Of a DNA stretch of 64,000 bases, positions 258 to 60,029 are shown in pieces. The position numbers were made by a program, and so were the translations under genes. Source of the stretch: Methanotrichaceae archaeon (lineage in GTDB: Archaea > Halobacteriota > Methanosarcinia > Methanotrichales > Methanotrichaceae). The notes under the pieces are model-generated. The model ran no database searches and was not told the origin of the DNA. It was given only the letters and a program-made list of their open reading frames with translations. Within the stretch, counting starts at the first letter, position 1. Each line of letters begins with the position of its first letter. The stretch spans positions 9,488-73,487 of the forward strand of contig CAVVKN010000007.1 in NCBI GenBank assembly GCA_963748825.1. Reading direction: 5' to 3'.

Positions 258-977
258 TCAGCTCTCCTCGTAAATCGGCTTTTCCGGCACCAGATAGATC
301 GTCCAGAAGACCAGTATGGTAACGATTGCTTTAACGATGATGTTGGTCCAGATCATCTGCTGCAAGCCTTCCGCACCCACAACCCCGGCAAAAGCGATGA
401 TGGGAAAGATCAGGCTATCCACGGGAATGGAGACGGAATTGGAAGCAAACACCCGCGTCCATTGCGGCCATTTTTCCCTGCCGCCACGAGTCCAGAGTTG
501 ATAGACTTTCGTGTCAATCAGCTCTGCAATGAGCGCCGTCAGGATGGATGCCAATACAATCCTCATCTGCAGGGAAAAAAGAAATTCCCAGGCAATCTGC
601 CCTCCGCTATTCGCCCAATCGGTCTGCGCCGGCAGCAGGACAACCAGCTGAAAATAAAGAGCCGCGAGCAGGTTGACGGCTGCCGACAGCCAGATAGTGG
701 TGACTGCCGCCTTCTGGCCGAGCTGCTTGTGGATCAGGTCGCGCCAGGTGAAGGTTAAAGAGTAAATGAAGCCGGCGTCCATGACCAGGCCGCCGAAGTA
801 GGTGACCTTGGTGGCGGCAATGTTGCCTGCCAGGGCGAAGAAGAGGTAAAGACCGGAGAGAATTATGGTGGCCTGAGTCCGATCAATCCCTAATTTGCCG
901 CCCTTAATCCGGTTCTCATCCGCTCTCTTCGTCCTCTGGCCCTCACATTCGCCCTGGCCCTCTGCCTTTATCTGCAT
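258..977 (-). CDS. yhhQ: Queuosine-precursor transporter (YhhQ/COG1738, VUT family)
   Basis: Multi-TM protein with GNIAATK, FTWRDLIHKQLG, RIVLASILTALIAELIDTKVY and SNSVSIPVDSLIF motifs; starts 1 nt after the tgt stop. Confidence 0.85.
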   Translation of the reverse strand: MQIKAEGQGECEGQRTKRADENRIKGGKLGIDRTQATIILSGLYLFFALAGNIAATKVTYFGGLVMDAGFIYSLTFTWRDLIHKQLGQKAAVTTIWLSAAVNLLAALYFQLVVLLPAQTDWANSGGQIAWEFLFSLQMRIVLASILTALIAELIDTKVYQLWTRGGREKWPQWTRVFASNSVSIPVDSLIFPIIAFAGVVGAEGLQQMIWTNIIVKAIVTILVFWTIYLVPEKPIYEES

Positions 978-978
978 T

Positions 979-2343
979 CTAAATCTTTCTCAGCCATTTT
1001 TCTTTCAGTTCCGCAAATGTACCTGTTCGTATGCTTTCCCTGACCTCTTCCATGAAGCGGAGCATGAAATGGAGATTATGAAGCGTTGCCAGCCGGAAAT
1101 AGGACAGCTCCCTGGAGACATAAAGATGGCGAAGGTATGCTCGCGTGTAGGTGCGGCAGGTCGAGCAGGAGCAGTTGGGATCAACGGGCTGCTCGTCCTC
1201 TTTGAATTTAGCTGTTTTGATATTTATGTGGAACTTGTTCTCTTGCGATCCGCCTGCCTGAGGCGAGAGCAAGAGGCTTCCCCGGCGAGCGATTCTGGTG
1301 GGCGAGACGCAGTCGAAGGTATCGATTCCTCGCGCCACGCATTCAAATATGTCGTCGATCTCGCCTATGCCTAAGAGATGGCGCGGCCGGTCGTCATCCA
1401 GTCGGGGAATGGTCCAGTCCAGGACCTGATGCATATCCTGCTTACTGTTTCCCAGCGAGCCCCCAATGGCGATGCCGTCAAAAGGCTGGGCTGAGATGGC
1501 CTCTGTGCTTTCCCGCCTCAAGTCATCAAACCATCCCCCCTGAATTATGCCATAGAGAGCTTGATTCTTATCGTGGTATCGAATAGACTCTTCCGCCCAA
1601 TCATGGGTCCTTAGCATGGCTTTTCTGGTGTAATCGTAATCTGAGAGGGGTGAAGTGCATTCGTCAAATGCCATGATGATATCCGTTCCAAGATTGGACT
1701 GAATCTTCATCGACTTTTCCGCATTCAAAAAATGCCAGGCTCCGTCGGCAAGGGACTTGAAGGAGATGCCCTCATCAGTAATCCGAGTCAAATTCTCCTT
1801 CTTCACCGCCTTCTGCCTTTCTTTTTCATTTACCCTGTATCCTATGCCACTCGAACTCCCATTCTCCCCTTCCGCGCAATTATCATCATATTTTTTCCTG
1901 TAATCTTTAAAAATCTCCGCTTGATCGCAATCGTTGTGAAGACATTCTTCAGGCTCAGGGCATTTGCCACCTGATCCCAGCTCTTGCGGGAAGATGTTGC
2001 CGATCTTGCTGATGTTATGCTCTCTGGCAAAGCCTAACGAGAAGGCCTGAAAGCCACCGGAATCGGAGAACAGGGGCCGTTCAAATCCCATGAACCGGTG
2101 CAGCCCACCCAGTCGCTTTATCAGCTCATCGCCCGGCTTCAAGTGAAGATGGTAGGTATTGGCAAGGGTGCACTGCACGCCTAAACTGAGCAGGTCGTCG
2201 GAGCCCAGAGCTCTCACGCTGCCCATTGTTGCCACCGGAACCAGGTAGGGCGTCTGTATATCTCCCCGCCTGGTTTTTATCAGCCCCAGCCTGGCTTTCG
2301 TTTCTTTATCCTGCTTTAAGATCTCAAAAGATAGTGCGCTCAT
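979..2343 (-). CDS. tgt: Bacterial-type tRNA-guanine transglycosylase (queuine tRNA-ribosyltransferase) with a large insertion
   Basis: Motifs NTYHL, DSGGFQ, MAFDEC, GIIQGG, AIGG, HLLGIG, FDCVSPTR and the Zn site CSCSTC...H; no C-terminal PUA extension of archaeosine TGT. Confidence 0.93.
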   Translation of the reverse strand: MSALSFEILKQDKETKARLGLIKTRRGDIQTPYLVPVATMGSVRALGSDDLLSLGVQCTLANTYHLHLKPGDELIKRLGGLHRFMGFERPLFSDSGGFQAFSLGFAREHNISKIGNIFPQELGSGGKCPEPEECLHNDCDQAEIFKDYRKKYDDNCAEGENGSSSGIGYRVNEKERQKAVKKENLTRITDEGISFKSLADGAWHFLNAEKSMKIQSNLGTDIIMAFDECTSPLSDYDYTRKAMLRTHDWAEESIRYHDKNQALYGIIQGGWFDDLRRESTEAISAQPFDGIAIGGSLGNSKQDMHQVLDWTIPRLDDDRPRHLLGIGEIDDIFECVARGIDTFDCVSPTRIARRGSLLLSPQAGGSQENKFHINIKTAKFKEDEQPVDPNCSCSTCRTYTRAYLRHLYVSRELSYFRLATLHNLHFMLRFMEEVRESIRTGTFAELKEKWLRKI

Positions 2344-2496
2344 TTCCTATTACCTGAATGCAATCATTACTGCTATCGTGCCCAGGCCTCCTGCGGTTAG
2401 CAGGCGGAAAAAGCTTTTGCATGACTTGCGCATAACAAGGCATCAGAAAAAACATTGATATACTCCTCAAGGATGTAATAAGGTCGAGGTTTATCG

Positions 2497-4708: not shown

Positions 4709-5446
4709 TTACAGCTTGCGATGGCAGAACCACCAGTCTTCGCAGACCATATCTCCACTCGTCTTCCTGGTAGCCGCGGTCTTTTCATCGCCGGGAGGCG
4801 GAATGATCACCTGATCGCCTATCAGCTCGTTGTTAGGCCAGTTAGCGGGAGCTGCTACCTTGTTCTTGTCCACAACCTGCAAAGCCTTTACTGCCCTCAC
4901 GATCTCATCCATATTTCTGCCCACTTCCTGGGGATAGAAGAGGATCAGCCGGACGGTTGCCTCCGGGTCAATGACGAACACCGCCCGAACGGTATTGCTG
5001 GCTTTTCCAGGATGGATCATGCCCATTCTCTGTGCAATCTTTCCCTGATCGTCGGCAATGATGGGGAACTTGATCTCTACATTCAGATTTTCCTTGATCC
5101 ACTGTGTCCACTTCATGTGGGAGAAGACCTGATCAATGGAAAGGCCGATGAGCTCGCAATTGAGCTTCTCAAACTCCCCTCGCCTCTTTTCAAAGGCCAC
5201 AAATTCCGTTGTGCAGACAGGCGTAAAGTCTGCAGGATGGCTGAAGAACACAAACCATTTTCCTGCGAAGGCATCGGGCAATGTCATCATGCCATGAGTG
5301 GTCTTCACCTCCATCCTGGGCATCTTGTCCCCAATAAGCGGAAAGCCACCCTCGCATCCACACATATTATGCATCATTCCCATATGCTTCATTCCCATTC
5401 CGCCCATTTCCATATGTTTTCCCATCGGCATTTCCATCTGACACAT
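4709..5446 (-). CDS. Peroxiredoxin (archaeal Prx6 type) with a Met/His-rich N-terminal extension
   Basis: [13 protein letters not shown] peroxidatic motif, GRNMDEI, C-terminal CEDWWFC; GAGGT RBS upstream of ATG 5446. Confidence 0.95.
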
Positions 5447-9971: not shown

Positions 9972-12900
9972 ATGAGATGCATTTTGGTTATTAGCTTGGC
10001 AGTTGTTTTTGCTTCAATATTTCTGCCAATTTCGGCAGCAAAACTCCCATTACAGTCTTGTGACTGTAATGGGACTTATGAAGTAAATCAGTATTATACG
10101 ACGGAGGAAGGCAAACGAGTAGATGGGCCTAAATTTTACCTTCAGTTAGAGGATAATTCTGCAGGTGGACGATTATCCCCTCATATGGTAAAAGGAAAGT
10201 CCAATGGAGTAAGCTTTGAGGGATATGCTGTGAATGCCTATGAAGGCTATTATAATAGAGTTCAGACGTTTCTTAATGGCACTTTTTGGCCAGCCGTATA
10301 TCCTACCACTATTAAAACCAGGATTGAGCTCAATTTGTATGACAGCGATTGCACAACTATCAATGGATATTGGACAAATATCTACTCAGGGAATACTTAT
10401 GTTAATCTAGAAGGCAAACGAGCATCTAGCGGAACCACTACAGAAGAAACTATCAGTCCCTCTAATACTGAATTAGCCGTGGACAGGGTAAAAGATTCTG
10501 CGGGAAATGACGATGTATCTAATCCGCTAGCTATTATTATCAGCTTGAAAGAGAATGAAAACCTGGTTCCTAATGCCAAGCTGAAGGTTCATGCCTTCAA
10601 TCTGCCTGGAAACGATGAAAAGCTGGCTGATTACTTTACAGTTAGCAGTTGCACCAATTGTTTCTGGGGCTCCAAGGGAGACAAAAAGATCGCCTTGATT
10701 TGCGATGGCTTCAAGCCGATAAGTCCGGACAGCGGAGGGCCTTTACTGGGGCCAACTTCGAACCCAGGCAGTTCTGGATCATTTGAACCTAACTGCCCGC
10801 TTAAGCAGACCCCATTGGAGGTGGTCACGGATGGAAATGGAATGGCGAAATTGGAATTCTTCCTTGATCTTGCGCAATTAGGTGATCAAGCTCCACGAAA
10901 GGGCCAGCCACTCTCAATTCCCGTAAAGGTTGAATATTGGGGCAAGGACGGCGCAAAGAAGATCGCTGAAAAAGAGATAGATCTTAATCTGGATTATGTA
11001 GGAGTAGTGGAAGGAATTACCTATGAGGCGCCGCCCGAATTGGATCGATTAACTGGAGATACCGTAATAGATTCGATAACTGGTAAACCCAAGGAGCAGA
11101 AAACAGGCAATCTAGTTGATTATTCAGGTGATCCGGGCACGAGTGCAGGATTAAACAGGTCCGATAGGGTCAGGATATCTGAAGAAGCCAAGCTGCTTCC
11201 GGAGGGAGTACCCACTGGAAGGCCGCTCAAAGTCAAAGATAAATTGTATGTAGATGATAAGATATTAATTAATGCTGAGAACCTCAAAGTGACAAGAGGA
11301 AACATGGTAATGTCTGGGGGCCTCTGGGTTAGAATGCGGTTCTTTGACGGATTTGTGGGGAAAGTGGGAGTGAGCGGCAATGTGCCCTCGCATGTGGTTG
11401 TCATAGGGCCAACCCCGGAGAAGACTGGTTTCACCAGTTGGACATCAAGTTTCATCCATTGGGGCTCAATGATTGGCTCTGAAATAGATTCAAGGGCAAA
11501 TCCAAAGTCATACATGATAAAAGCAGGCATGAAACAAATAGCTCCCGAGCTTGTTCCCTATTATTCAGCCTATTCGAAGGGAAAGAAGATAAAAGAAGTT
11601 GTCGAATTGATCTATGAGATGAAGCCCGTATACATCAGTGTAGAATCAGCAATAGCGGTTGATTACAATGATCAGGGGCAGATGCTGGTCACAACCCGTG
11701 AAGGAAATGCGACCATATACACAGAGGCTACTGGTGAGGAAGGCTTTGCAGTCCCTGCTGGCAAGACCGCGGTCATCCCGTCTGATTTAATGCCAATCCT
11801 GAATGATACCGATGTCAAGACCGCCCAGGATGCCGATGATCTCCTAGCAGACCTAGAAGATCCTTTCGCTTCCTCTCCTGTATTTACCGGATCAGGAGCA
11901 TCTGCCTTGGGAGGTGCATCGGAAGGTGCATCGAGCACCAATGGCACTGCTCCTGGATCGGACGGTGCAGGAATGCCTGGCGCAGGCAACGCCACTGGTG
12001 AAAATGCCACAGCAAGCTCAGGAGGCGGCGTAACCACTGCAGGTGGCTCAAATACCCCTGGTGTTTCAGGCGCAGGAACCTCAACAACAACGACAAGCCC
12101 TAGCAACAACAATCAGATTGGAGATGCTTCCGAGATCATGCTCTCTCAGCCTGTTGGCCAGGTCATCAATCCGGCCGGCTCCAGCAACTTCTATCGGTTC
12201 CATGCTGAAACTTCAGGAATCCTGGAGCTTAAGCTGGAGAGCATTCCCAAGGATATGAGGCCTGAAATCCATTTGCGCGATAAAAACTTTGGAGAGATTG
12301 CTTATAAATCCGCCTCCAATCCGGGAGATTCTCTCAGATTGGAGAGGGATATACTCGGGCCGGGCTGGTTTTATATCGAGGTCAGAGACCAGGATGGAAA
12401 AGCTCACAGTGAGTCCTATGCATTGAAGACGTCTTTCCAGCCCGCCCCTGACCGGTACGAGCCCAATCCTAACTTCTTCCGGTCTGCTGAGGTTAAATCT
12501 GCCCAGACGGTCGATGCTTACATCTGCCCAGGCGGAGATGAGGACTACTACAGGATCTATGCAGATACCTCAGGAATCATCGAGCTGAAGCTGGAGGCAG
12601 TCCCCAAGGATATGAAATCAGAGATATCGATCCGTGATATGAGCTCTACCCAGACAGCCTATGCTTCGGCCTCCAATGCAGGAGATAAGGTCCGCCTTGA
12701 GAAGGATGTGCAGGGGCCGGGTTGGTTCTACATCATGGTCAGAGATCTAAACGGAAAGGCATATAGTGAGCCGTATTCTCTGGCGGTCTCGTTCAAACCA
12801 GCTGCAGATCAGTATGAGCCCAACCCCAACTTTTTTAGGGCTACGGAGATTGCCCTGGGCCAATCGATCAACGCTTACATCTGCCCTGGTGGAGACGAGG

Positions 12901-32921: not shown

Positions 32922-33302
32922 TCACATTAATTCTTTAGGATTAGGATATTTTACGTCGAAGGTGTACCAGCTGTAGCCATTTATCCCTTCCTCATAGACC
33001 GAGGAATAGTTCAGATCCATGCTGAGGCGGAAGAAGCCATTCGGCCGGTTATTGGGTGCACCCCAGGAGTTTAGCAGTATCCAGTAGCGGTTATTGGGAT
33101 CGGTATCGTTGTAGCCCAGGCAAAGGACGGTATGAGCACCGTTATCGGGACCATCGGAGTATGAACTGCCCCTTCTGGGCGTCCAGACTGCTTCCTCTGG
33201 CTCAGAGTTCCAGAACTCCATGAAGGGAGACCAGTCGTCCAATGCGTAATTGAAGATCACTGCCTTATTGGAGGCAAGGACTTGCCATGCTCTGCGCCTC
33301 TT
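32922..33302 (-). pseudogene. C-terminal fragment of a papain-like (C1A) cysteine peptidase
   Basis: GAHTVLCLGYND...YWILLNSWG carries the catalytic His and Asn; the catalytic-Cys N-terminal half is absent. Confidence 0.8.
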
Positions 33303-33665
33303 CTAGCGCTCCAGCAGTTCCAGAAACTCCTTCTTGCTCATCCTCACATCGCTCATTATCTCCATCAGAATTCCCTGCCAAAGTTCTTCTCCTAGATACA
33401 CGGGGATTACTGTGCTCCTGCCATCGGGATGCTTCATGATAAGGTAGCTGCCTCTTTGCCTTACTGGATGAAAGCCAATTTTTCTCAGGGTTTTGACGAC
33501 AACCTCGGCTTCAACAGGTCTCAACTCAACAACTTGCACACCCACAAAGCTTCCCATAGTGCTGCTTCCTTCTGTCTCCAGATAGAGCAAAATGGCCTCC
33601 TTGATTCTGCTCATTAAATCGTCAGGGCTTTTTGGCCTGTGTGTGACAGCCGGGTGGTGATTCAA
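33303..33665 (-). pseudogene. Decayed, fused hicB-hicA toxin-antitoxin relic
   Basis: PGCHTQAK[+1 in A5]SPDDLMSRIKEAILLYLE...FVGVQVVE (HicB) runs in frame into LRPV...KTLRKIGF...RQRGSY...TVIPVY (HicA with His to Tyr changes). Confidence 0.8.
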
Positions 33666-42768: not shown

Positions 42769-43560
42769 ATGGTGAAATCCAGCAAGGCGATCTACTCTAG
42801 CAAAATACTAAAAGCAGGATCGATCCTAGCAGAGACAAAGATACTGCTAGCTGACTGGGACAACTCAGTTTCTGTGAATCAAAATCTTGATCGTTTTCGT
42901 CAGAGTAACATTCTTGGAAAGGCATCCCGTTCCAGGGTAGAAGACATCTTGCAAGTATTTAGGCAGCGCTACTTGGTTGAGGAGCAAGTTAGAAAAGCGC
43001 TTGTTAGCCTAATGAAGGCAAGATTCTCAGCAGATAGCCTACATCTGATTTTGTACTTTCATGCGGCAAGATCCGATCCGCTCATTCACGACTTCGTAAT
43101 TGAAGTTCTATGGCCGAGGTATCAGATTGGAAGGCAGGATATTCTAGTAAAAGACGCTGAAAACTGGATACGAGAGAAAATCTCCAAAGGAGTAACGACT
43201 AGACCCTGGTCAGACAACACTATAGAGAAATCTGCTCAGGGATTGATGAGCACATTAAGAGACTTCGGCGTTCTACAAGGACTAAAGAATAAACGTCTTG
43301 CTCCGGCTTATTTGCCTGTGGATGCCTTCTCTTACGTCGCCTTTTTCCTGAGCAGACTTCAGCCATCCGGCAAACGTCTTCTGGAAAGCAAAGAGTGGCA
43401 ATTATTCTTCCTGAGAACAGAGGCCGCAGAGCACCTCTTTATGGAAGCCCACCAGCAGCATTTACTGGATTATCATGCCGCTGGTTCCGTAGTCAGGATT
43501 GTATTCCCGTCTGATTCCATCGAGGAGTATGTTCATGTTATCCTTAAAAGAACGTATTGA
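42769..43560 (+). CDS. brxA: BREX protein BrxA (DUF1819-like)
   Basis: NILGKASRSR; LILYFHAARSDPLIHDFV; WSDNTIEK..QGLMSTLRDFGVL; first gene of the brxABC block. Confidence 0.8.
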   Translation: MVKSSKAIYSSKILKAGSILAETKILLADWDNSVSVNQNLDRFRQSNILGKASRSRVEDILQVFRQRYLVEEQVRKALVSLMKARFSADSLHLILYFHAARSDPLIHDFVIEVLWPRYQIGRQDILVKDAENWIREKISKGVTTRPWSDNTIEKSAQGLMSTLRDFGVLQGLKNKRLAPAYLPVDAFSYVAFFLSRLQPSGKRLLESKEWQLFFLRTEAAEHLFMEAHQQHLLDYHAAGSVVRIVFPSDSIEEYVHVILKRTY

Positions 43561-44113
43561 GCTTTTGGAAAATGACCTAAAGGCAAAGCCGCCGCGGGTA
43601 AGCGTTTACCATGATATGCCGTTTGCCATATTAAGGTATGAGCCTCAAGAGGAGTGGACGCTGCGTAAAGAGCTAAGCTTGCTGAACACCAGATTGAACG
43701 CTATGGGAAAGGATGTAGTGCTGATATCTTTGGCTGAATTGCTTTGGGAAGCCATAGAAAAATCCGAGGGGTTGGAAGAAATAACAAACCTCGAAAAGGA
43801 TATGGGATTTGAAAAGGCGCAGGAGCAAGTTACCATCTACCTTTCCGATTCTGATTATCGACCACTTAGGGAAATGCTGGCTGAGCGCTTGGAGTTGCTT
43901 GATCCAGATAAACATATTGCTTTTTTGATAAGATCCGCTTGCATGGCTCCGGCGATATATCCTATGTCCAGGCTTCTTGACGAAATGCATGGCTACACCA
44001 GGGTAACAACAATACTCTTCTATCCGGGGACAATAGAGGGAACAACTGGCCTTCGTTTTATGGATTTAGATGACAGAGAAGTTCAGGGAAATTATAGAGT
44101 GAAGATTTACTGA
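43535..44113 (+). CDS. brxB: BREX protein BrxB (DUF1788-like)
   Basis: PFAILRYEPQEEW...ILFYPGT...GLRFM...NYR; overlaps the brxA end; GAGGAG RBS. Confidence 0.82.
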   Translation: MLSLKERIELLENDLKAKPPRVSVYHDMPFAILRYEPQEEWTLRKELSLLNTRLNAMGKDVVLISLAELLWEAIEKSEGLEEITNLEKDMGFEKAQEQVTIYLSDSDYRPLREMLAERLELLDPDKHIAFLIRSACMAPAIYPMSRLLDEMHGYTRVTTILFYPGTIEGTTGLRFMDLDDREVQGNYRVKIY

Positions 44114-44122
44114 TATTTACTG

Positions 44123-47100
44123 ATGTTAGTGGGAGATTCAGGAATGGAATTAATCGGGGATCTACTCTCCAGGGATCTAAACCAGGTCATTGAAGAGATA
44201 ATACAGGTGGATCAGCTGGATGAGCAGACAGTCTACTCGGAGATTACTGAGTATGTGGCAACGAGCCGGATTAAGGATCACTACAGGTCGCTCCTGAAGG
44301 CAATCGCAGAAGCTCCATCTGAGCCTCATGAAGGTGTAGGGATCTGGATCTCTGGTTTCTTTGGCTCCGGTAAATCTTCCTTCGCCAAGAATCTGGGCTA
44401 CGTATTGGCCAATCCCACGATACTGAGAAACAGTTACAGCGACCTCTTCAAAAATCAGCTTAAAGACAGAAGGATCAGCGAATTGGTGGATTTCATCAAC
44501 AAGGGATTTCCCACCGAGGTGATCATGTTTGACATCTCCAAGGCCAAGGAGGTCAAAAGAGGAGATGAGAAGATTGCGGAGGTCATCTACCGGCGATTGC
44601 TCTCCCATTTGGACTATGCTGAGGATTACGATATTGCCGAACTGGAGATCGAGCTGGAAGGCGATGGACGGCTCAATGAGTTCTTAGGGTTTTCCAGAGA
44701 GGTCAACGGCAAGGAGTGGAGCGCGGCCAGAAAAGGAGCTATGAAGATCAATTACGCCTCTGCAATCCTTCATAAAATGAATCCAGAGACATTTCCAGAA
44801 GCCGATTCCTGGGCCAAATCTCTCCAGGGAAAGCATCCTACTCTTACTATCGAACTGGTTGTTGATCGGGCCTTTGAGCTTACGGCAAGGAGGCGCCCCG
44901 GAAAAGCTCTTTTCTTCATAATCGACGAGGTCGGACAGTACGTTGCTCGCAGTGTGGACAGGATTGAAGATCTCCGTGCCTTAGTGGAACAGTTCGGCAA
45001 GGTCAGCAAGAATCGCTTGAAGGCAAAGAAGGCTATCGCTCCCTCATGGATCGCCGTTACATCTCAAGAAAAGCTGGAAGAAGTTGTGGCCGCTCTGGAT
45101 TCAAAAAGAGTAGAGCTGGCAAAACTCCAGGACAGGTTCAAGTACAGGGTGGATCTTGCTCCCGCTGATATTCGAGAGGTAGCAAGCCGCAGAGTGCTGG
45201 CCAAAAAGGATGATGCGATAGCGGTCTTGAAGAGCTTATTTGATAGAGCCCAGGGACAGCTGAACCTCAGCTGCCGGCTGGAGAGGACATCACGAAGGAG
45301 CGAGGTCCTGGAAGAGGAGTTCATCCAGAGTTACCCATATCTTCCTCATTTTATCGATATGTCCATCGACATAATGTCTGGCATCCGATTGCAGCCGGGC
45401 GCAGACAAGCATCTGGGCGGAAGCAACCGGACAATAATCAAGCAGGCCCATGAGATGCTGGTCAATGAAAGGACGGCTTTGAAGGACAAACCAGTAGGTG
45501 CCCTGGTGACTCTCGATAAGATCTTCGACCTTGTGGAGGGGAATATCTCCACGGAAAAAAGAAAAGATATCGATGACATCAGACGAGGTTTTAAAACTGA
45601 GTCGGAATGGGCCTTGCGGGTGGCAAAGGCGATATGCCTGCTGGAGTTCATCAGGGACCTTCCCAGGACCGAGGCTAATATTTCAGCCTGTCTGGTAAAT
45701 GAAGTCAGCAGGCCCGCGCCCTTAGCCGATGTGAAAACGGCTTTGGATCTCCTCTTGGAGGCAAAGTTCGTTCGAAACTCGGAGGATGGGTGGAAGCTGC
45801 AGACTGCGGAGGAGAAGAGCTGGGAGACGGAGAGAAGAAGCCTGGAGCCGAAAGCGAGGGAGAGGAGAGATATTCTCAACGAAGCCGTATCCGGCATGTT
45901 TGGCGAGCTGGGGCTTAAAAGCTATCGTTTCCAGAAGCTGAAGACCTTTAAAGTGGGAGTCAGCTATAACGGTGACAAGGTAGAGGATGGACAGATATCG
46001 CTTTCCATCATGAGTTCGGACGATATCTCGGCTTTCCAGGCCAGAAAAGAGGAGATCAGGGCGGAGAGCAGGCAGGAAGGCCGCAAGAACGAGATATATT
46101 TTGTGTTTCCGCTAAACGCTGAGATCGATGCAACGGTTTCAGATCTGCATTCCTCCAGGGAGATGGTCAAGAAGTATGATCATCTGCGGGCACAAAACAA
46201 GATCGCAGGGGAGCAGGCTGCACTGCTGGAAGGCGAGAAGAAGGAAATTAGCAGGAAGAAGTCCAGGCTGCAGGAAAAGGTATCTGAGGCTTTTATGAGC
46301 GGGGCCTCCATGTTCCGGGGCAGCTCCAAGGACGGATCGGATCTGGGAAAGAGCCTTGAGAATGCAATCAAGAATCTTTTGGATGATGTCGTCCTGGACC
46401 TTTATCCCAGGCTGCCCATGTGGGCCCGCCCGCTCAAAGGAAATGAGGCGGAGGAGCTGCTGAAGGCTGCCAATCTGAGCGGGCTTCCTGCTATCTTTTG
46501 CAACAGCGAGCTGGGGATGAATCTGGTTGTGAGAGACAGCCAGAAATTTGTGATCAATTGCGAAGCTGAGGTGGCAAAGGAGGTTCTCGACCACTTAATC
46601 CGGGAGCACGGCTTTGGAAACCGGGAGACTCGGACCGGCAAGGCTCTTGAGGCTCACTTCGGGGGGCTGGGCTACGGAGGAGACCAGGATATGCTCAGGC
46701 TGGTTCTGGCGGTGCTTTTCCGGGGTGGGGCGATTGAAACATCCTTCGGAGGTCAGCGTTTTGATTCCTATCAGGACACGGCCAGCCATGAGGCTTTCAA
46801 TAACAGCCGAACATTCAGGTCAGCTCTCTTTACTCCTGCAACGGTCATTCCCATCCAGAATCTCACCCGAGCGGTAGAGAGATTCGAAGAGATAACCGGC
46901 GGGACTGTGGATGTGGACAAAAATGCCATCGCATCCGCCTTCAAGCAGTTCGCTGAGAAGGAGATGCGAGGGCTGCTCCCTATCGAGGAGAGGATCAGGG
47001 CAAACGGCCTGCCTGGGCAGGATAGGTTCGAGAAGGTCAAAGAGATCCTTCAGCAGGCAAGAAAAGGGACAGCAGAAGAGGTTGTGGGCATTCTGGCAGG

Positions 47101-47791
47101 GGAGGGCAAGTCGCTGAAGGAATCTCTGGACAGCGTTCACAGAATCAGGGATTCCATGAACGATGAGGCCCTTAAGTCCGTCAAAAACGCGCGCTCGGCT
47201 CTGAAAGAAATGTGGCCAGTCCTAAAGGTTTGTCTCGAAGATGATGACGAGATCAAGGAGATGGCTGCGGACCTTGATGCGCTTCTGCTGTCTGCGGATT
47301 TGTATGATAAGCTCAGCGAGATGAAGAGAGCTTCAGCGGAAATATCAGGGCGCTACTTCAAGATTTACACCAGTACGCATGACTCAAGGAGGGATGCCTT
47401 CCAGGCAGTCATCGATGAGATCAAGCTAACTTCTGATTGGGGGACGATCAAAGAGAGCATGAGAGAGTCGATCTTGCGAGAGCTGACGGCAAAGGGATGC
47501 GAGGATCAAGAAATTGGGCAAAACAGCGTTTATTGCTCCAATTGTAGGGCAAGCATCCCGCAGATGGAGTCCGACAGCCGGGCCCTGGCAGAGATCAAGA
47601 CCAGTGCACTGCAAAGGATGGCGGAGCTTATGCAGACGGCAGGCGGGCCAAAGCGAGTGGAGAGGGTGCGCCTTTCCAAAATATACAAAGGCAAGGTCGA
47701 CTCCAAGGAATCAGTGGATAGAGCTGTAGAAGCACTGCGAGAGCACCTGATGAAGCTTCTTTTGGAAAACGCAAGCATAATCCTGGAGTGA
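44123..47791 (+). CDS. brxC: BREX P-loop ATPase BrxC
   Basis: IWISGFFGSGKS Walker A, IIDEVGQY Walker B, TSQE, LQDRF and YP.LPH motifs; 1222 aa. Confidence 0.92.
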   Translation: MLVGDSGMELIGDLLSRDLNQVIEEIIQVDQLDEQTVYSEITEYVATSRIKDHYRSLLKAIAEAPSEPHEGVGIWISGFFGSGKSSFAKNLGYVLANPTILRNSYSDLFKNQLKDRRISELVDFINKGFPTEVIMFDISKAKEVKRGDEKIAEVIYRRLLSHLDYAEDYDIAELEIELEGDGRLNEFLGFSREVNGKEWSAARKGAMKINYASAILHKMNPETFPEADSWAKSLQGKHPTLTIELVVDRAFELTARRRPGKALFFIIDEVGQYVARSVDRIEDLRALVEQFGKVSKNRLKAKKAIAPSWIAVTSQEKLEEVVAALDSKRVELAKLQDRFKYRVDLAPADIREVASRRVLAKKDDAIAVLKSLFDRAQGQLNLSCRLERTSRRSEVLEEEFIQSYPYLPHFIDMSIDIMSGIRLQPGADKHLGGSNRTIIKQAHEMLVNERTALKDKPVGALVTLDKIFDLVEGNISTEKRKDIDDIRRGFKTESEWALRVAKAICLLEFIRDLPRTEANISACLVNEVSRPAPLADVKTALDLLLEAKFVRNSEDGWKLQTAEEKSWETERRSLEPKARERRDILNEAVSGMFGELGLKSYRFQKLKTFKVGVSYNGDKVEDGQISLSIMSSDDISAFQARKEEIRAESRQEGRKNEIYFVFPLNAEIDATVSDLHSSREMVKKYDHLRAQNKIAGEQAALLEGEKKEISRKKSRLQEKVSEAFMSGASMFRGSSKDGSDLGKSLENAIKNLLDDVVLDLYPRLPMWARPLKGNEAEELLKAANLSGLPAIFCNSELGMNLVVRDSQKFVINCEAEVAKEVLDHLIREHGFGNRETRTGKALEAHFGGLGYGGDQDMLRLVLAVLFRGGAIETSFGGQRFDSYQDTASHEAFNNSRTFRSALFTPATVIPIQNLTRAVERFEEITGGTVDVDKNAIASAFKQFAEKEMRGLLPIEERIRANGLPGQDRFEKVKEILQQARKGTAEEVVGILAGEGKSLKESLDSVHRIRDSMNDEALKSVKNARSALKEMWPVLKVCLEDDDEIKEMAADLDALLLSADLYDKLSEMKRASAEISGRYFKIYTSTHDSRRDAFQAVIDEIKLTSDWGTIKESMRESILRELTAKGCEDQEIGQNSVYCSNCRASIPQMESDSRALAEIKTSALQRMAELMQTAGGPKRVERVRLSKIYKGKVDSKESVDRAVEALREHLMKLLLENASIILE

Positions 47792-47818
47792 TGAAGATGA
47801 AGGAAAAGATGGGCAATT

Positions 47819-48298
47819 CTATTCTTGGCGGAGGAAATCGCCCATATCATCTTTTTCTGATATCATCCATCTTCCTTTTCCCAAAATTTTATCCAATTTA
47901 ACTTTCTTGGCTTTCTCCAGAGGAGAGGAGCCGTGGCATCTTATGTAGCATTTGAAAAGGAGATCTTCATGAATAGCCCTCTTGTGAGGATCGCTCCTGA
48001 AGCTCTCGATCAGGATATCTCTCGTCTTGAGAATCTGCTCAATGGCATCGCCTAAATCGCCTTTCTTGAGCTCCACCAGGCAGAGCACTTTTTGGCCGCC
48101 TCTGGTGAAGAAGACCGCAAGATCGCACAGCTTGCCATCATATCCCATGTCCTTACGAAATGGTCCATTTGGACCTTCGTCAATTCTGAAAAACAAGACG
48201 ACTTCATCAGTGGCACGTCGCACACTCACAGTGACTTTATTCTCCGTGAAGCTGTTGCCTTGCCACAGGCATCTCGATAGCAGAGTATTAAAAGGCAT
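47819..48298 (-). CDS. Small putative PD-(D/E)xK nuclease (159 aa)
   Basis: CDLAVF...LCLVELKK...AIEQI pattern; AGGTGA RBS overlapping the ATPase stop, 10 nt gap. Confidence 0.65.
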   Translation of the reverse strand: MPFNTLLSRCLWQGNSFTENKVTVSVRRATDEVVLFFRIDEGPNGPFRKDMGYDGKLCDLAVFFTRGGQKVLCLVELKKGDLGDAIEQILKTRDILIESFRSDPHKRAIHEDLLFKCYIRCHGSSPLEKAKKVKLDKILGKGRWMISEKDDMGDFLRQE

Positions 48299-48308
48299 CC
48301 TGCTTCAC

Positions 48309-49694
48309 CTAAATCTGGAAATAAATATTGGATACCTGCTCTGACACATCCCCGAAGGTTCCCCAGTCAATCATCCCGTCCTCAGAAAGCACATTTTTGG
48401 CCGTGCCGTCTTCAAAGAGGTAAACCGACACCTTATCCTTGGAGAGGAATGCCTCCGACGTCTTCAGGTAAAACTTCTCCGCTGCCTCATCCGGCCGCTC
48501 CTTTTTTGCGCCCTCCATGATATTGACCAGATGATCGACGATGTAAGGGCTGTGGGTGGTGACGATTATCCTGATCCCCGAGTTCACGAGGATGGCAAGC
48601 AGCTCTATGATCTTGGCCTGGGCCTCTGGATGAAGGTTCATTTCCGGCTCGTCTATGACCAGAAGATCTCCTGGCATGGCTACGTAGGTCAGATAGAGAT
48701 ACAATGGCGAGAGTGACTTTACCAGGGAGGCAGTGGCAGGGATCTCTACAGTCTTTCCGTCTGCGCCCGATGGCTTGAATAGAACTCTGTTGGCCTTGAG
48801 CACAGGGTCCGATTGGATGAGTTGCAGATCTCCTTTTAGAAGCTCTGTGCGAAGGAGGTTCGCCAATTCCAGGTACCGTCTCACATGAAGATCATTGTCG
48901 GCGGTCTCTTCTCTGTCTTTGAGATTGCCTCTATCCCTGATATCGGCGATCATGCTCATTAGATTGTCTATTGGATATGATTGATTGAATGAACCGGAAT
49001 CAATCCGGTTCCTCAGATCCCCAATTTTTGGAGGCGAAAGAGCCAGGGAGGAATAAGCGATCCTTTCCGGTGGGAAAAAGAAGATTCTGGGATAAATGGA
49101 ACGAATCAGGGGGGTTAATACTGCAGAATGAGAAAATTCATCAATTCCCGTGGATAGTGGTTTTGAATCATCCTCGCTGCCTGCTACATAGAATTTTATT
49201 GATCGTTCCCCTTTAATTTTCTGGATATGAAGTGTCTCTAACCTCCTAAGTCCTAACGGTATCTTCCATGAAGAAGCATAATTCATGATACCCTCGGACC
49301 ATTCGTTCGTCATATCACTGGGATCGAGACTAAGCTCAAGTTCTTCAAAAATTGAGTCATCAGTTCCCAGGTATTTTCCCAACGAGCGAGACGCTGTTCT
49401 TGCAAGATCATTCAGGAATTGGGACCCTCGGATTTGCTGAAATTCAATGAGGTCTATTAGCGCAGTGCCGTTCTCGGCAAACGAAGAGTTTGCCTCGTCT
49501 ACTTCAGAATAATTGATGGATCCAAGCCTAAATCGCTCCAGTAACTCGAATATACATAAGGATGAAAAAGCAGATGCGATCAGATAAGCCGTCCAGGTCT
49601 TGCCGGTATTATTTTGGCCGATAAAGACGGTCAGAGGTTTAATATTAATATTTGCCTCCCTTACTGGCCCCAGATTTCTGATAACTGCATGCAT
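48309..49694 (-). CDS. ABC-type (AAA_15/AAA_21-like) ATPase
   Basis: IRNLGPVREA..I.IKPLTVFIGQNNTGKT Walker A, LLVIDEPEMNLHP Walker B/D-loop, TTHSPY H-loop; start at 49694 or 49748. Confidence 0.88.
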   Translation of the reverse strand: MHAVIRNLGPVREANINIKPLTVFIGQNNTGKTWTAYLIASAFSSLCIFELLERFRLGSINYSEVDEANSSFAENGTALIDLIEFQQIRGSQFLNDLARTASRSLGKYLGTDDSIFEELELSLDPSDMTNEWSEGIMNYASSWKIPLGLRRLETLHIQKIKGERSIKFYVAGSEDDSKPLSTGIDEFSHSAVLTPLIRSIYPRIFFFPPERIAYSSLALSPPKIGDLRNRIDSGSFNQSYPIDNLMSMIADIRDRGNLKDREETADNDLHVRRYLELANLLRTELLKGDLQLIQSDPVLKANRVLFKPSGADGKTVEIPATASLVKSLSPLYLYLTYVAMPGDLLVIDEPEMNLHPEAQAKIIELLAILVNSGIRIIVTTHSPYIVDHLVNIMEGAKKERPDEAAEKFYLKTSEAFLSKDKVSVYLFEDGTAKNVLSEDGMIDWGTFGDVSEQVSNIYFQI

Positions 49695-49785
49695 TCGCAA
49701 TTCTATTGGCAAAGCATTGGTTAAATTAATATCGCTTCCACTCCTCATCGAAATCATTTTAGACTCTGAAGATGTGTGATTCCTC

Positions 49786-52700
49786 ATGGACCGATCAGCG
49801 ATACACGACATGACTTTGCGGGCGCGAGAGCTTCTCATGGGCGAGACGCAAGACTTGCTGCAGGGCATTTACGGCCTGGACAGCAAGGGCAATTTTGAAG
49901 ATGTGAAAAGGCTGCCCGCGGCCTTGTCCCTGCCGGAGATCGGAGCGACCAGAAAGCGCCTGGAAAAGTTTCTCAAAGACGAAGAGCAGGCGGGCCTCCC
50001 GCGCCGGGAGGCTGTGGCAAAGCTGGTCAAAGAGGCGGCCTTCACCCACCTCAACCGATTAGTTGCCTTCAAGATGATGGAAGCCCGAAAGCTCATCCGC
50101 GGAACTGTGGATCGCTATCAAGAGTCCAATGCCTTCAAGTTTTATTTAGCCGAGCACGATGATGAACTCCGGCTCTACGAGCAGGGAAGCCAGCCCCAAA
50201 GCGAGGTAGGCGAGGGGCCGAGGGACCTGGCATACAGGCATTTCCTGCTCTGGCAGTGCGAGCAACTTTGCAAAGAGATCAAGGTGCTCTTTGATCCTGA
50301 GAACCTGGCCAGCCAGCTCTTTCCCCGGCCCAGGGCCCTGAAGTCGCTCCTGGAGATGCTCAATGACCCGGCGCTACAAGAAGCCTGGAGAGAGGAGGAG
50401 ACGGTAGGCTGGATCTACCAGTACTTCAGCGAAGAAGAGAAGAAAGACGTCTTCGACCGGCTCTACAAGAAGAAGCAGAAGATCCGGCCCGAGGACATTC
50501 CCGCAGCCACGCAGCTCTTCACGCCCCGCTGGATTGTCAAGTTCCTGGTGCAAAACACCCTTGGCAGACAATGGATGCAGATGCACCCGGACTCCTGCCT
50601 TGCGGCCGCCCTGGATTATCTCGTCCCCCTGGCAGGAGAGATCCCGGCAGAAAAGATGAAGCCCGTGAGAGAAATCGAGGTGCTCGATCCGGCCTGCGGC
50701 ACCATGCACTTTGGTCTGGTGGCCTTCGACCTTCTGGCAGAGATGTACCGGGAGGAGATGGAGCGGGCCGGGAGCCCCGGTTGGCCGGAAAAGCCCTCCG
50801 TCGCCTCAGCGGAGACCATACCGGCAGCCATCATCGCCAACAACATCTTCGGCATCGATATCGATCTGCGGGCGGTGCAGCTCTCCGCCCTGGCGCTCTA
50901 CCTGAAAGCCAAGAGCCTCAATCCCAAAGCACAGATCACAGACAGCCACCTGGCCTGTGCTGAGCTGCAACTGCCCGACGACGCCAAGCTGGAGGTGTTT
51001 CTCCAGTCTTGCAAGTTCACCCTGCCCGTTTACGAGAGAATCATCCGCAAGCTGTGGAGCACCATGCGGGGCGGATCGGGCATCGGCGCCGGATCGCTGC
51101 TGCCCCTGGAGAGCGCCATAACTCTGGAGGTGGAGCGGGAGCGCCGCTCTCATCTCACCAGCTTGCAGAGGTTCGAAGACCTGGCCGATGCCCCAGAGGA
51201 TGTGGCCCGCACGGCAGTGTGGGGGCCGGAGTTCTGGGACGTTTTGGGCGACCAGATCGTGATGGCCTTCAACAGCTTCGCAGACGAGCAGGCGGCAGCG
51301 GGCGGGGATGAGAGCTACTTTGTGGGCGAGGCGAGCAAAGGGATGCGGCTGCTGGACATCATGCGCCGCAAGTACGACTGCGTTTTCACCAATCCGCCCT
51401 ACATGACACGAAAGAACATGCAAGAGCCGCTATCAGACTTTTTGGAAGCCAACTATTCTGAAGCCAAGGGCGACTTTTACACAGCCTTCATCAAGCGATG
51501 TCTGGAGCTGACCAAGGATTTTGGGCGCTTCGGACTCTTGACAGTCCATTCCTTCATGTTCGTCAGCTCTTACGAGAAGCTCAGGGAGAAGATATCAGCA
51601 CTCAGGCGGCCATTGAATCGGGCTGCCACCTCGGGCCGAGGTCGGAGTTTGAGATCTCCAATCCCAATGCGCAAGGGTTTGTGGCCTTCACCTGTCGCAA
51701 GGGCTCGGATGAGGTCCGGCTCTTCAATCCGGACGACAGCTGGTACGGAACCTGGTACAGGCTCATAAAAGCGGAGGGCGAGGAGAAGAGAACGCTCTTC
51801 GAAAAGCAGCTTGCTGGGCAGGCGGAGGGCGTTTACGTCTATCAGCAGGCGGCCTTCAACTCCATTCCCGGCAGCCCCTGGGTCTACTGGATCACGCCCG
51901 GGCTGCGGCGGTTGTTCGTGGAGCTGCCCAAGCTGGGGGAGATAGCGCAACCGTATGCATAGGAATGAGAACGGGAGATAATTTTCGCTTTCTGCGATTC
52001 TGGTGGGAAGTGGGCGTTGATCAAATAGGTATTCGGTATGAAGAGCAGAGATGAGGCGCATAGAGTCAGGAAGAAAATGGTTTCCGTATATGAAAGGGGG
52101 AAGTTTCCAACGCTGGTATGGGAATCAAGAATTTGTTGTTGAATGGGACAATGATGGACAAATAATTAAAGAGAACACAAAGCAGAATTATCCTGGACTA
52201 GGGAATAATTTAGGTTGGAAGATCTGAATGCAGAATCACTATTTCCAGCGTGGTGTAACCTGGACTGAACTGACTTCAGCACGTTTCAGCGCCAGGCTTT
52301 CTCCGGGCGGTTTCATCTTTGATGTTGCAGGATCGTCATTATTTCCCGACGGATGTCTCTTTAATTCTGGGAATTATGAACTCGACATTCTCTCAATTGC
52401 GCTCAATATTATTAATCCTACTAGTTCATGTTCAAGTCGGCGACTTGGCCCGCCTGCCTATACCCACCGAGTCCAGCAAGCAGCTTGAGAATCTCGTCGA
52501 TCGTGCCATCTCCCTGGCCATGAAGGAATCCGCCGAAGACGAGACCACCTTCGACTTCATCGCCCCGCCCTGGACCGTCTCCCTGGACGACACCCTCACC
52601 GAGATCTGGCTGCGAGACGAGATCCTAGGCGATGTGGAGAAGGCCATCGACGAGGAGGTCTACCGGCTCTACGCCATCTCCGACCAGGATCGAAAGGCCA

Positions 52701-53642
52701 TCGAGTCCGAGCTGGCCCAGCCCGTCGCCGAGGGCGAAGAGGCAAGAGGAGAAGCCGGATTACATCGATGATGAGGAGCTGGCCCGCCGCTGGATCTCCT
52801 ACGCCGTGGGCATCGTCATGGGCCGCTTTTCGCCTGACATCTCTGGTGCCCTGGGCCAGGGCCGTTTTTCTTCGCCGGTGGCAGCACAGCTTCGCTCCCT
52901 GGCCGACAACGACGGCGTGGCCACCCTGGATGAAGGCCATCAGGACGATCTGGCCCGCAACGTCTGGAATACCCTGGAGACCGCTCTGGGCGAGTCCGGG
53001 GCCTCGGAGATCGTGGAGACCGTATTGGGCGATGGCCACCCCGAGTCACTGCTGCGCCGCTACCTGGAGCGGGACTTCTGGAAGCGACACCTCCAGCAAT
53101 ACCGGAAAAGGCCTGTCTACTGGCTGCTGCAGTCTCCGGCCAAGAGCTTCAGCGTCTACGTCTTCCACGAGCGGGCCACCAGGGACACCCTGCCGCTCAT
53201 CATGGGCACGCGCTACGTCACCGGCAAGATCAACCAGCTCAAGAACCGCATGGACGAAGTCCAGATGGAGAAGAAGACAGCGGAAGGCCGGGCTAAGAAG
53301 ATGCTGGAAAAGGATCTGGAGGACCTGGAGACAAAGCTTCTGGACCTGGAAGCCTTCCAGGCTGCCATCCGGCGTGTACTGGGGCAGAAAGACGAACGGG
53401 GCGAGACGGTGGGCTGGGCACCGGAGATCGACGACGGCGTCATCCTGAACCTGGCTCCTCTGCATGGGCTGATGCCCTCCTGGAAGGAACCGGAGAAGTT
53501 CTGGAAAGAGCTGGAGGAGGGCAAGTACGACTGGTCCTACACGGCCATGCGCTACTGGCCGGACAGAGTGGGGGAGAAGTGCAAAAAGAACAAATCCTAT
53601 GCGATAGCGCACGGAAGGATGGACGTGTACGAAGGCGGATGA
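49786..53642 (+). pseudogene. pglX: BREX N6-adenine methyltransferase PglX, broken in this sequence by about eight frameshifts and one TGA (51590-52745)
   Basis: LDPACG motif I, TNPPY motif IV, then TGDN.RFLRFWWEV, KWFPYMKGG..RWYGN, RPVYW and IDDGVILNLAPL spread over shifting frames. Confidence 0.88.
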
Positions 53643-53702
53643 CTGCTTGCTTATCTTGCGCAATCTATTTACGGACTTTGGACTTAGAGGAAAATTAGAA
53701 GG

Positions 53703-54152
53703 ATGGATAAAATGAGCGGTTCCGATGATTGGATCCATGCCGGTTTCAGCCAGTTTAAGAAAGCTTTCAGGGACCACTGGGAAAACGGATCAAAAAGAGA
53801 AGATCCGTCGCACTATCTGCTGAGATTTTATTCTGTAGAATGCGGATTAAAATCCATGTACATTTATAGTAAAGATTAAACATATAAAATGAATAGCAAG
53901 AATATGCCCAATCATGGGCATAGACTCGATTGGTGGCTTGAGGAACTCATGATCTCTGCAAGCGACATCAATCCTCCTCCAAAATTCACATTAAATAGTA
54001 GCATAAACATAAACTCACCCAGAGAAATCTATAGATCACACGAAGCCTGGCGGTATGGAGTAAAAATGGACCCGACAAAAGAGAAGCTCCTGCTTGAGTG
54101 GTTTGATAAAGCTGAAAAATATATTAAGGATTACTTACAGGAGGCAATGTGA
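53703..54152 (+). pseudogene. HEPN-like protein (about 149 codons) split by one in-frame TAA at 53877-53879
   Basis: Same frame on both sides: ...HYLLRFYSVECGLKS...SKD*TYKM...GHRLDWWL...REIYRSHEAWRYG...; stop overlaps the next start (TGATG). Confidence 0.55.
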
Positions 54153-56773: not shown

Positions 56774-56838
56774 GCGTGCTTTGCGGCAAGAAGAATCCTA
56801 TTTATTGTTAGATACCCGATTAATTAAAGAGGATCAAC

Positions 56839-57363: not shown

Positions 57364-57388
57364 GAACAAGCTCGAAGATCTGGGGAAA

Positions 57389-59992: not shown

Positions 59993-60029
59993 AATTGAAG
60001 TTCTCAAGTCATATATCAAGGAGACAATC

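Follow-up and report, generated by a model that had tools for sequence, protein, structure and literature searches.

By the usual description, queuosine is a tRNA modification found in Bacteria and Eukarya, and its counterpart in Archaea is archaeosine (Zallot et al., 2017, PMC5372724; Castelle et al., 2021, PMC8204110). Castelle et al. (2021) report a bacterial tRNA-guanine transglycosylase (TGT), QueA and QueH in 34 archaeal genomes, including DPANN and "some Methanosarcinales", and Zallot et al. (2017) noted the transporter family COG1738 in Archaea, where salvage of preQ0 for archaeosine was assumed. The TGT and the queuosine precursor transporter (QPTR) of Chlamydia trachomatis are reported to accept queuine but neither preQ1 nor preQ0 (Yuan et al., 2019, PNAS, as cited in PMC11130926, PMC11570991 and PMC12301720). 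Bartonella henselae salvages preQ1, which is proposed to be the final modification (PMC11570991). The Chlamydia lineage and the mitochondrial TGTs of algae and protists make up the BL-TGT group, which is described as having Gly in place of Val233 and Leu in place of Cys158 (PMC12301720). Here we describe a pair of adjacent genes, tgt and yhhQ, on a 64,000-nucleotide stretch (hereafter the window; positions 9,488 to 73,487 of contig CAVVKN010000007.1, assembly GCA_963748825.1) from an archaeon of the Methanotrichaceae. We read the pair as a two-gene salvage operon that is native to this family of methanogens and has queuine as its most likely base, a reading that we hold with no more than an even degree of confidence. 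The features on which it turns are as follows, numbered from the first letter of the window.

258..977, minus strand: yhhQ/QPTR (COG1738, Vut_1), a predicted transporter of 7-deazaguanine bases from a divergent archaeal branch; open reading frame (ORF) of 239 aa identified by family hidden Markov models (HMMs)
979..2343, minus strand: tgt, a bacterial-type tRNA-guanine(34) transglycosylase of the short-loop (GGSLG) subfamily; ORF of 454 aa with HMM, PDB and Foldseek matches
975..981, minus strand: the junction of the two genes, with the tgt stop TAG (981-979), one nucleotide, and the yhhQ ATG (977-975)

The TGT was first placed within its superfamily. It scored 463.3 bits on the NCBIfam model TIGR00430 (the G34 Tgt equivalog, EC 2.4.2.29; cut-off 306.75), 123.4 bits on the model of the archaeosine-forming archaeal enzyme, arcTGT (TIGR00432; cut-off 350), and 30.6 bits on that of DpdA (NF041059; cut-off 200), so that the curated HMM cut-offs rule out an arcTGT or a DpdA. 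The Pfam TGT domain (427.8 bits) reaches residue 453 of 454, and no PUA, C2 or C3 domain and no C-terminal extension was found with Pfam. The best PDB relatives were the TGTs of Thermotoga maritima and Zymomonas mobilis (E ~1e-88), followed by human QTRT1 (1e-67) and arcTGT (1e-14), and the identity to E. coli Tgt is 42%. An AlphaFold model of medium quality (pLDDT 69.7) gave Foldseek TM scores of 0.84-0.86 to bacterial TGTs. The residues expected of such an enzyme were checked both in the DNA and in the translation and mapped onto the Z. mobilis enzyme as listed here.

2047..2064, minus strand: DSGGFQ, aa 94-99; Asp94 corresponds to Asp102 and Phe98 to Tyr106
1657..1668, minus strand: FDEC, aa 226-229; Asp227 corresponds to Asp156, and Cys229 to Cys158 (Cys145 in E. 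coli)
1306..1317, minus strand: FDCV, aa 343-346; Asp344 corresponds to the nucleophile Asp280, and Arg350 and Arg353 to Arg286 and Arg289
1078..1173, minus strand: zinc site Cys391, Cys393, Cys396 and His422, corresponding to Cys318, Cys320, Cys323 and His349, with CSCSTC at aa 391-396

In the same alignment Q268 matches Q203, G294 and G295 match G229 and G230, and R44 stands at the place of K52. Across 120 homologs (65-98% identity) these motifs vary little or not at all. Counting the window protein, DSGGFQ is identical in 110 of 121 sequences and MAFDECTSP in 117 of 121, while among 35 clade members the D, S, F and Q of the first motif are invariant, as are all mapped catalytic, guanine-binding and zinc residues together with R350, R353 and R44. 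The Lys52 equivalent has thus been replaced by an arginine (Arg44) that is itself conserved. In the complex of the Z. mobilis TGT with RNA, it is Lys52, Arg286 and Arg289 that touch U33 and U35; the conservation of Arg44, Arg350 and Arg353 therefore fits an unchanged target in the anticodon loop. Together these data support a predicted bacterial-type G34 TGT, distinct from arcTGT and DpdA. This agrees with a preliminary description made from the DNA alone, which had named a bacterial-type enzyme other than the archaeosine TGT, without a PUA tail and with the motifs DSGGFQ, FDEC, AIGGSLG and CxCxxC...H; all four motifs are present in DNA and translation, and the TGT domain indeed ends the protein.

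The host is a methanogen, as that description had it, and belongs to the Methanothrix family. The window encodes MfnB, of methanofuran synthesis, and ribosomal protein S19e, and a syntenic closed chromosome encodes PolD. The TGT homologs of 65-98% identity come from metagenome-assembled genomes (MAGs) of Methanothrix and other Methanotrichaceae, and the tgt pair was found in 63 archaeal loci, each from a distinct GTDB species. For three of these the chromosome or contig measures 2.2-3.6 Mb, closed ones included, and one of them is set among PolD, MfnB, purB and DTD2. OY821645.1, OY762912.1 and CAWBKV010000001.1 are closed Methanothrix chromosomes with the operon. Against seven relatives dN/dS was 0.12-0.18 for tgt and 0.11-0.20 for yhhQ, and both GC and GC3 of the two genes match those of host genes.

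These observations bear directly on the possibility of an artefact, namely a metagenome bin contaminated with bacterial DNA or a functionless relic of a transfer in decay. It could be argued from the fact that all carriers seen are MAGs; no isolate genome with the operon was present among the 67 loci or the cluster members examined, every named carrier being a MAG. However, the gene sits amid archaeal genes (PolD, MfnB, S19e) in closed chromosomes and long contigs, its composition is host-like, it is under strong purifying selection, its catalytic residues are intact in 120 homologs, and it is transcribed in situ (see below). Archaeal neighbours on closed chromosomes, host-like composition and low dN/dS exclude contamination and decay, and we consider this explanation effectively refuted, with a residual probability that is negligible. 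The pair is native to the Methanotrichaceae and functional.

In a crude neighbour-joining tree the Methanotrichaceae-type TGTs form one clade, to which MAGs under the labels Methanospirareceae and Methanobacteriota also belong. Closest outside it stand a contig that looks archaeal but bears no label and an Aenigmatarchaeota sequence, and bacteria resembling the candidate phyla radiation (CPR) come next. The tree and the host-like composition point to an old acquisition followed by vertical inheritance. The horizontal origin proposed in the preliminary description is thus plausible as such, but the transfer must be set far back, as it is fully ameliorated in GC and GC3 and inherited throughout the family, with no clear bacterial donor. 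Near the tgt of the closest relatives outside Methanothrix (Aenigmatarchaeota, a bacterium with reverse gyrase, CPR-like bacteria and unclassified contigs) neither que genes nor QPTR were found, and these loci are uninformative on the substrate.

The second gene of the pair encodes a member of the QPTR family by both of the models applied, scoring 115.8 bits on PF02592 (cut-off 27.2) and 80.4 bits on TIGR00697 (cut-off 50.95), and the hydrophobic segments of a polytopic membrane protein are visible in its sequence. On the minus strand the junction reads ...AAG ATT TAG A ATG CAG..., leaving a gap of 1 nt between tgt and yhhQ, an arrangement compatible with translational coupling. This coupling presupposes the ATG at 977, the yhhQ start differing among public gene callers (versions of 211-246 aa). 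The region upstream of the pair is the following.

2344..2496, no strand assigned: intergenic region 5' of tgt, shared with a divergent NUDIX gene; no Rfam match

The promoter of the operon presumably lies in this region. Neither a preQ1 riboswitch nor any other riboswitch upstream of tgt was matched by Rfam, even at E 10; the 64-kb window as a whole contains no tRNA gene and no Rfam match, and no GUN tRNA gene was found near the operon in the window or in 52 loci. Just 3' of yhhQ, a very GC-rich stretch (125-200) is where contigs from three metatranscriptome runs end their match, with loose ends at 148 and 179; it looks like a strain-variable junction.

The association of the two genes extends well beyond the window. 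The same yhhQ lies directly 3' of tgt in 55 of the 60 archaeal loci that extend past tgt, and in 42 of these 55 a candidate yhhQ start is placed -67 to +4 nt from the tgt stop. Two classes of junction recur, namely a spacing of +1 nt (10 loci and the window) and an overlap of 20 nt (18 loci). The NUDIX, MfnB and HisA/F-like neighbours of tgt are kept in only about one third of the loci. As the flanking genes vary while tgt and yhhQ stay paired, the conserved unit is the pair alone, and the three neighbours were rejected as parts of the module on account of this limited synteny. In one Methanotrichaceae lineage (L040) the usual yhhQ is missing and a different Vut_1 gene of 225 aa (11535-12212, plus strand) follows tgt; its product has 26% identity (40 bits) to the window YhhQ and scores 100 bits against the Chlamydiota QPTR that adjoins tgt. 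Such an independent re-association of tgt with a QPTR argues for a functional link. At two loci (L064 and L043) tgt is followed by no transporter at all, and at two others (L041 and L065) by remnants only.

The operon is transcribed in situ. Groundwater metatranscriptome contigs, mostly 95-99% identical to the window, cover tgt and yhhQ, and the junction is spanned by the RNA-derived contigs X25 (738-1175) and X26 (877-1085), the evidence consisting of assembled contigs for which DNA carry-over is possible. Adjacency, the overlap or close spacing of start and stop, the junction-spanning contigs and the replacement at L040 together link tgt and yhhQ functionally. Both ORFs with their 1-nt spacing and the pairing with a YhhQ-type transporter, as first put forward from the DNA alone, therefore stand: coordinates and junction were verified in the DNA, and the partnership by the family HMMs, the conserved adjacency and the junction-spanning contigs. 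Annotation by PGAP already names the two proteins Tgt(34) and queuosine precursor transporter.

This pairing is also where a role in archaeosine synthesis must be considered. YhhQ could import preQ0 for archaeosine at G15, with the co-encoded TGT acting on another tRNA position, another RNA or DNA. Salvage of preQ0 is what was proposed for the archaeal COG1738 homologs (Zallot et al., 2017, PMC5372724), and a conserved, clade-specific insert near the RNA-binding face of the TGT (described below) could alter its target. However, the arcTGT and DpdA models score far under their cut-offs, the residues matching the contacts of bacterial TGTs with U33, U35 and G34 are conserved, and the transporter is tied to the bacterial-type TGT, and not to arcTGT, in 55 loci. 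The same pairing occurs moreover in Chlamydiota, which make no archaeosine. We regard this role as very improbable and place the weight on insertion of an imported base at G34.

Two parts of the TGT set it apart from the enzymes of E. coli and Z. mobilis, an insert behind the first active-site motif and the loop that would contact the substrate.

1987..2034, minus strand: conserved part of the subfamily insert, GFAREHNISKIGNIFP, aa 104-119, from the clade alignment
1801..1986, minus strand: hypervariable low-complexity linker, approximately aa 120-181, from the homolog alignment
1444..1464, minus strand: substrate loop GGSLGNS, aa 294-300 (within AIGGSLGNS, aa 292-300), from the alignment

The insert, which is absent from the TGTs of E. 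coli and Z. mobilis, follows DSGGFQAFSL and consists of a conserved segment GF(A/G)REHNIxKIGNIFP and then the low-complexity linker. Within the clade R107, E108, H109, K113, G115, F118 and P119 are invariant, and a related EH(G/N)(V/I)xKIG..FP occurs in members from Chloroflexota, Xenobia and unclassified bacteria. The whole insert region measures 26-102 aa across homologs and 80 aa in the window protein, and it is disordered in the AlphaFold model. From homolog to homolog the linker differs in length by some 75 aa, and conservation is lacking at its four Cys, for which reasons a second metal or Fe-S site in this Cys-rich segment was rejected. The linker (1801-1986) is also a hotspot of length polymorphism; metatranscriptome contig X25 carries an in-frame deletion of 78 nt in it (joint 1903-1982).

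Compared with GGL(A/S)VGE, the canonical loop for preQ1, GGSLGN(S/C) lacks one residue and has Asn or Ser in place of Glu235. This short loop occurs in 121 of 121 clade members, so the AIGGSLG reading given earlier in place of a GGLAVGE of the preQ1 type holds for every one of them, and the Glu235 loop of preQ1-inserting enzymes is lacking in the window TGT. To place this loop, 138 full-length representatives (at 50% identity) closest to the window TGT were surveyed. Forty-four had a short GGxxG loop and a median insert of 26 aa (34 with Cys and 6 with Leu at position 158), and 74 had a loop of canonical length and a median insert of 4 aa. A further feature common to the window clade and the short-loop TGTs related to it is LLGIG in place of the canonical LMGVG. 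The short-loop TGTs, marked by a GGSxG loop, the loss of Glu235 and an insert that follows DSGGFQ, are a distinct superclade, which takes in the Chlamydia-type enzyme and whose labelled members come from Aenigmatarchaeota, Chloroflexota, Xenobia, unclassified bacteria and a Euglena transcript. The last of these (P0146, Euglena gracilis, 632 aa) has DEC and GGSLGA, with Cys and not the Leu said to be typical of BL-TGTs, and a long N-terminal extension. At L071/L072 (11272-14763) a bacterial short-loop TGT lies directly 5' of a reverse gyrase gene (ResIII/DEAD helicase with Toprim/topoisomerase, 1163 aa), a neighbour that suggests a thermophilic host.

The link drawn in the preliminary description between a GGSLG loop and the queuine-inserting Chlamydia TGT was borne out by this comparison. 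The 120 closest relatives of a short-loop, Leu-type TGT (P0183), among them sequences named Chlamydiales, Parachlamydiales, Chlamydiia and Babeliales, have GGS[LVMI]G in all 120 cases and (L/F)DEL in 108, and the BL-TGT group is said to have Gly where Val233 would stand (PMC12301720). Two environmental Chlamydiota contigs (L081, 9352-11128; L082, 9349-11122) show the transporter pairing as well, with a yhhQ (Vut_1) that overlaps the start of tgt.

We therefore propose the following route. What the two genes are, their families, their conservation, their arrangement as an operon, their transcription and the kind of substrate pocket are shown by the data above, whereas the target (G34), the direction in which the transporter works and the base itself are inferred. 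The YhhQ/QPTR membrane protein would import a free 7-deazaguanine base released by neighbouring bacteria. A homodimeric, zinc-containing TGT with Asp344 as the nucleophile would then replace the encoded G34 of the GUN tRNAs (Asp, Asn, His, Tyr) by the imported base. Queuine would go in as such, bypassing QueA and QueG/H, in the manner reported for C. trachomatis, preQ1 being a close second candidate. That the Methanotrichaceae read their NAY codons by means of queuine or preQ1 at tRNA position 34, a 7-deazaguanine that they are unable to make by the known bacterial route and have to scavenge from bacteria around them, seems to us slightly more probable than the contrary.

Queuine is favoured because the short GGSLG loop and the site of the insert are common to this TGT and those of Chlamydiota, because coupling with a QPTR is found in Chlamydiota too and the L040 transporter is Chlamydiota-like, and because no queA or queF was found in the flanks and no queA, queG, queH or queF in the window. 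In the window, Pfam scans of 55 ORFs gave no member of the QueA, QueG, QueH, QueF, QueK or Qng1 families, and tblastn with E. coli QueA, QueG and QueF gave no match; the absence of queA, queG and queH first remarked there was thus substantiated. The other loci were fetched with as much as 10 kb to either side of tgt; in these flanks, 1.19 Mb from over 60 genomes, the QueA and QueF of E. coli had no match by tblastn. QueH was not found by Pfam among the window ORFs or the gene lists of L068 and L069, the only places where it was looked for. The sole QueG match by tblastn, 8 kb from tgt in a single Methanotrichaceae MAG (L038, 9160-9903, plus strand), was rejected; this protein of 247 aa contains a Fer4_16 ferredoxin domain only, with 29% identity to residues 111-261 of E. 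coli QueG and the rest of QueG missing. At the far end of the window a DUF7411 PP-loop ATPase (63228-63884, plus strand) adjoins the S19e gene and has a QueC-like match below threshold (21.4 against 22 bits).

A number of observations weigh against queuine. The Cys at position 158/145 tunes TGT towards preQ1, as mutagenesis of the E. coli and human enzymes has demonstrated (PMC3074131), and the corresponding Cys229 is invariant here, while queuine-using TGTs have Val (human) or Leu (Chlamydia type). The ambiguity of substrate that the preliminary description saw in this preQ1-like Cys is accordingly real. The alignment of the loop is also less favourable than its length, since HMMER, BLAST and MAFFT put Leu297 opposite Val233 in targets with the wild-type loop and Gly298 falls opposite position 233 only against a V233G mutant, the register of the loop deletion being ambiguous. 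The published pattern for queuine-type enzymes, GG[LS][AS]G (PMC11570991), is mismatched by GGSLG at its fourth residue (Leu); the retrieved Chlamydiota sequences miss the pattern as well, and in its printed form it may be a simplification. Nor does the transporter speak for queuine, as the window YhhQ is remote from both its E. coli (26 bits) and its Chlamydiota (37 bits) relatives and the substrate specificity of QPTR is, according to the literature, not predictable from sequence similarity. The AlphaFold model has pLDDT below 50 at residues 90-179, which is poor near the active site, and it served to confirm the fold only. Finally, Castelle et al. (2021, PMC8204110) word the archaeal pathway as "complete and/or partial".

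The same module could for these reasons serve preQ1 (or preQ0), either as the final modification or as an intermediate matured to queuosine by QueA and QueH/QueG encoded elsewhere. Beyond the invariant Cys and the Leu that the aligners set opposite Val233, it is consistent with this that the QPTR of E. coli carries both preQ0 and preQ1, that Archaea are considered to obtain the preQ0 of archaeosine by synthesis or salvage (PMC5372724), and that genomes with tgt and QPTR only can still use preQ1, as Bartonella does. In algae, BL-TGTs that have this loop are accompanied by QueA and QueG (PMC12301720), and QueA and QueH are reported for some archaea by Castelle et al. (PMC8204110). However, GGL(A/S)VGE has been replaced and Glu235 lost in every clade member, QueA and QueF gave no tblastn match in the 1.19 Mb from more than 60 genomes and Pfam no queH in the window, L068 or L069, and the experimentally characterised loop type that is closest, that of Chlamydia, uses queuine. 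We judge preQ1 or preQ0 as the base of the module to be possible and less probable than the queuine reading. Taking the bases singly, queuine ranks first with a likelihood somewhat short of one half, preQ1 is a possible but weaker candidate, and preQ0 is improbable; sequence cannot settle the choice among them.

The suggestion of archaeal queuosine salvage with which this work began is partly supported in its interpretation, and it is not new, having been foreshadowed by Castelle et al. (2021, PMC8204110) and by the names that PGAP assigns. No mention of queuosine together with Methanothrix or Methanosaeta was found in the literature searched, and the searchable literature yielded no earlier account of the tgt-yhhQ operon, of its conservation across the family, of its transcription or of the hybrid pocket. 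Judged from genome data, salvage by QPTR and TGT would be a known kind of system in an unexpected domain. A conserved, selected and transcribed operon of a G34 TGT and an importer across a family of methanogens argues that some Archaea use a wobble base of the queuosine family, and if true this would be the first such modification shown in Archaea. It would also imply a cross-domain dependency on a micronutrient in methanogenic consortia, the Methanotrichaceae being the globally dominant acetate-splitting methanogens. The gene was found in wastewater, sediments and wetlands; the base would probably come from syntrophic bacteria, adding a micronutrient link to the methanogenic food webs of these habitats, and dependency on it could bear on the resistance of many Methanothrix lineages to isolation. 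The combination of a Chlamydia-type loop with a preQ1-type Cys can also be viewed as a natural experiment on the substrate determinants of TGT.

Elsewhere in the window, a BREX-like phage-defence island occupies 42769-62057 on the plus strand, together with 47819-49868 on the minus strand. It encodes BrxA, BrxB, a ParA/AAA_31-like protein of 874 aa, DUF6398, PglZ and BrxL, with an ORF of 1222 aa without Pfam match in the position of BrxC and a short (660 aa) Eco57I/N6_Mtase gene resembling PglX. Between the BrxC-like ORF and the PglX-like gene lie an AAA_15/AAA_21 ATPase on the opposite strand and an ORF of 159 aa. A 1-Cys-type peroxiredoxin (4709-5446, minus strand) is unusually extended at its N terminus by some 35 aa, a segment rich in Met, His and Gly that might bind metal. 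An otherwise gene-poor stretch contains a HicA-toxin-like ORF (33303-33665, minus strand) and a fragment of a papain-family peptidase (32922-33260, minus strand).

When set beside the known members of the superfamily, the window TGT shares the TIM barrel and the zinc site with arcTGT/TgtA and DpdA; it lacks the C-terminal PUA domains of the G15-modifying arcTGT and scores 123 on that model against a cut-off of 350. With the bacterial TGTs of E. coli, Z. mobilis and T. maritima it has the fold, the catalytic Asp pair, the zinc site and Cys158 in common. It differs from them in having GGSLGNS for GGLAVGE, with Glu235 lost, in its insert of 80 aa and in not being located beside queA. The transporter belongs to the same family as E. 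coli YhhQ, an importer of preQ0 and preQ1, to which it matches with only 26 bits. As a minimal pathway of import and insertion with no downstream enzymes in view, the pair resembles the tgt and QPTR of B. henselae (PMC11570991), whose TGT, however, keeps the canonical GGLAVG loop, whereas the archaeal loop is of the Chlamydia type.

Short-loop TGTs outside Bacteria have been described in the mitochondrial BL-TGTs of Chloropicon and other algae and protists, sometimes with a bacterial YhhQ (PMC12301720; Manna and Harman, 2016, as cited there). These are said to be Chlamydia-derived and to have Leu in place of Cys158, and Chloropicon also has QueA and QueG (PMC12301720). The TGTs that Castelle et al. 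(2021, PMC8204110) report from DPANN and "some Methanosarcinales" are probably of the same TGT family and, for the latter, from the same archaeal group. The DPANN genes are described there as a co-localised QueA-QueH-TGT set, and the paper mentions no YhhQ partner, whereas in the Methanotrichaceae no queA or queH is nearby and a QPTR is part of the operon.

The closest resemblance is to the Chlamydia-type system. The archaeal enzyme shares with it the short GGSxG loop without Glu235 and the insert after DSGGFQxFSL, and TGT is paired with QPTR in Chlamydiota as in the methanogen, with no que genes nearby in either. The differences are also clear. The gene order is tgt followed by yhhQ in the archaeal loci and yhhQ followed by tgt in Chlamydiota, the sequence of the archaeal insert (REHNIxKIGNIFP and the hypervariable linker) differs from that of the Chlamydia-type insert, the window transporter is only remotely related to the Chlamydiota QPTR (37 bits), and the host is archaeal. 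The residue that matches Cys158 is Leu in the Chlamydia type and, in no fewer than 117 of the 121 homologs of the archaeal enzyme, Cys. By its sequence, the archaeal TGT would thus possess a hybrid pocket, in which a Chlamydia-type loop is combined with the retained bacterial Cys.

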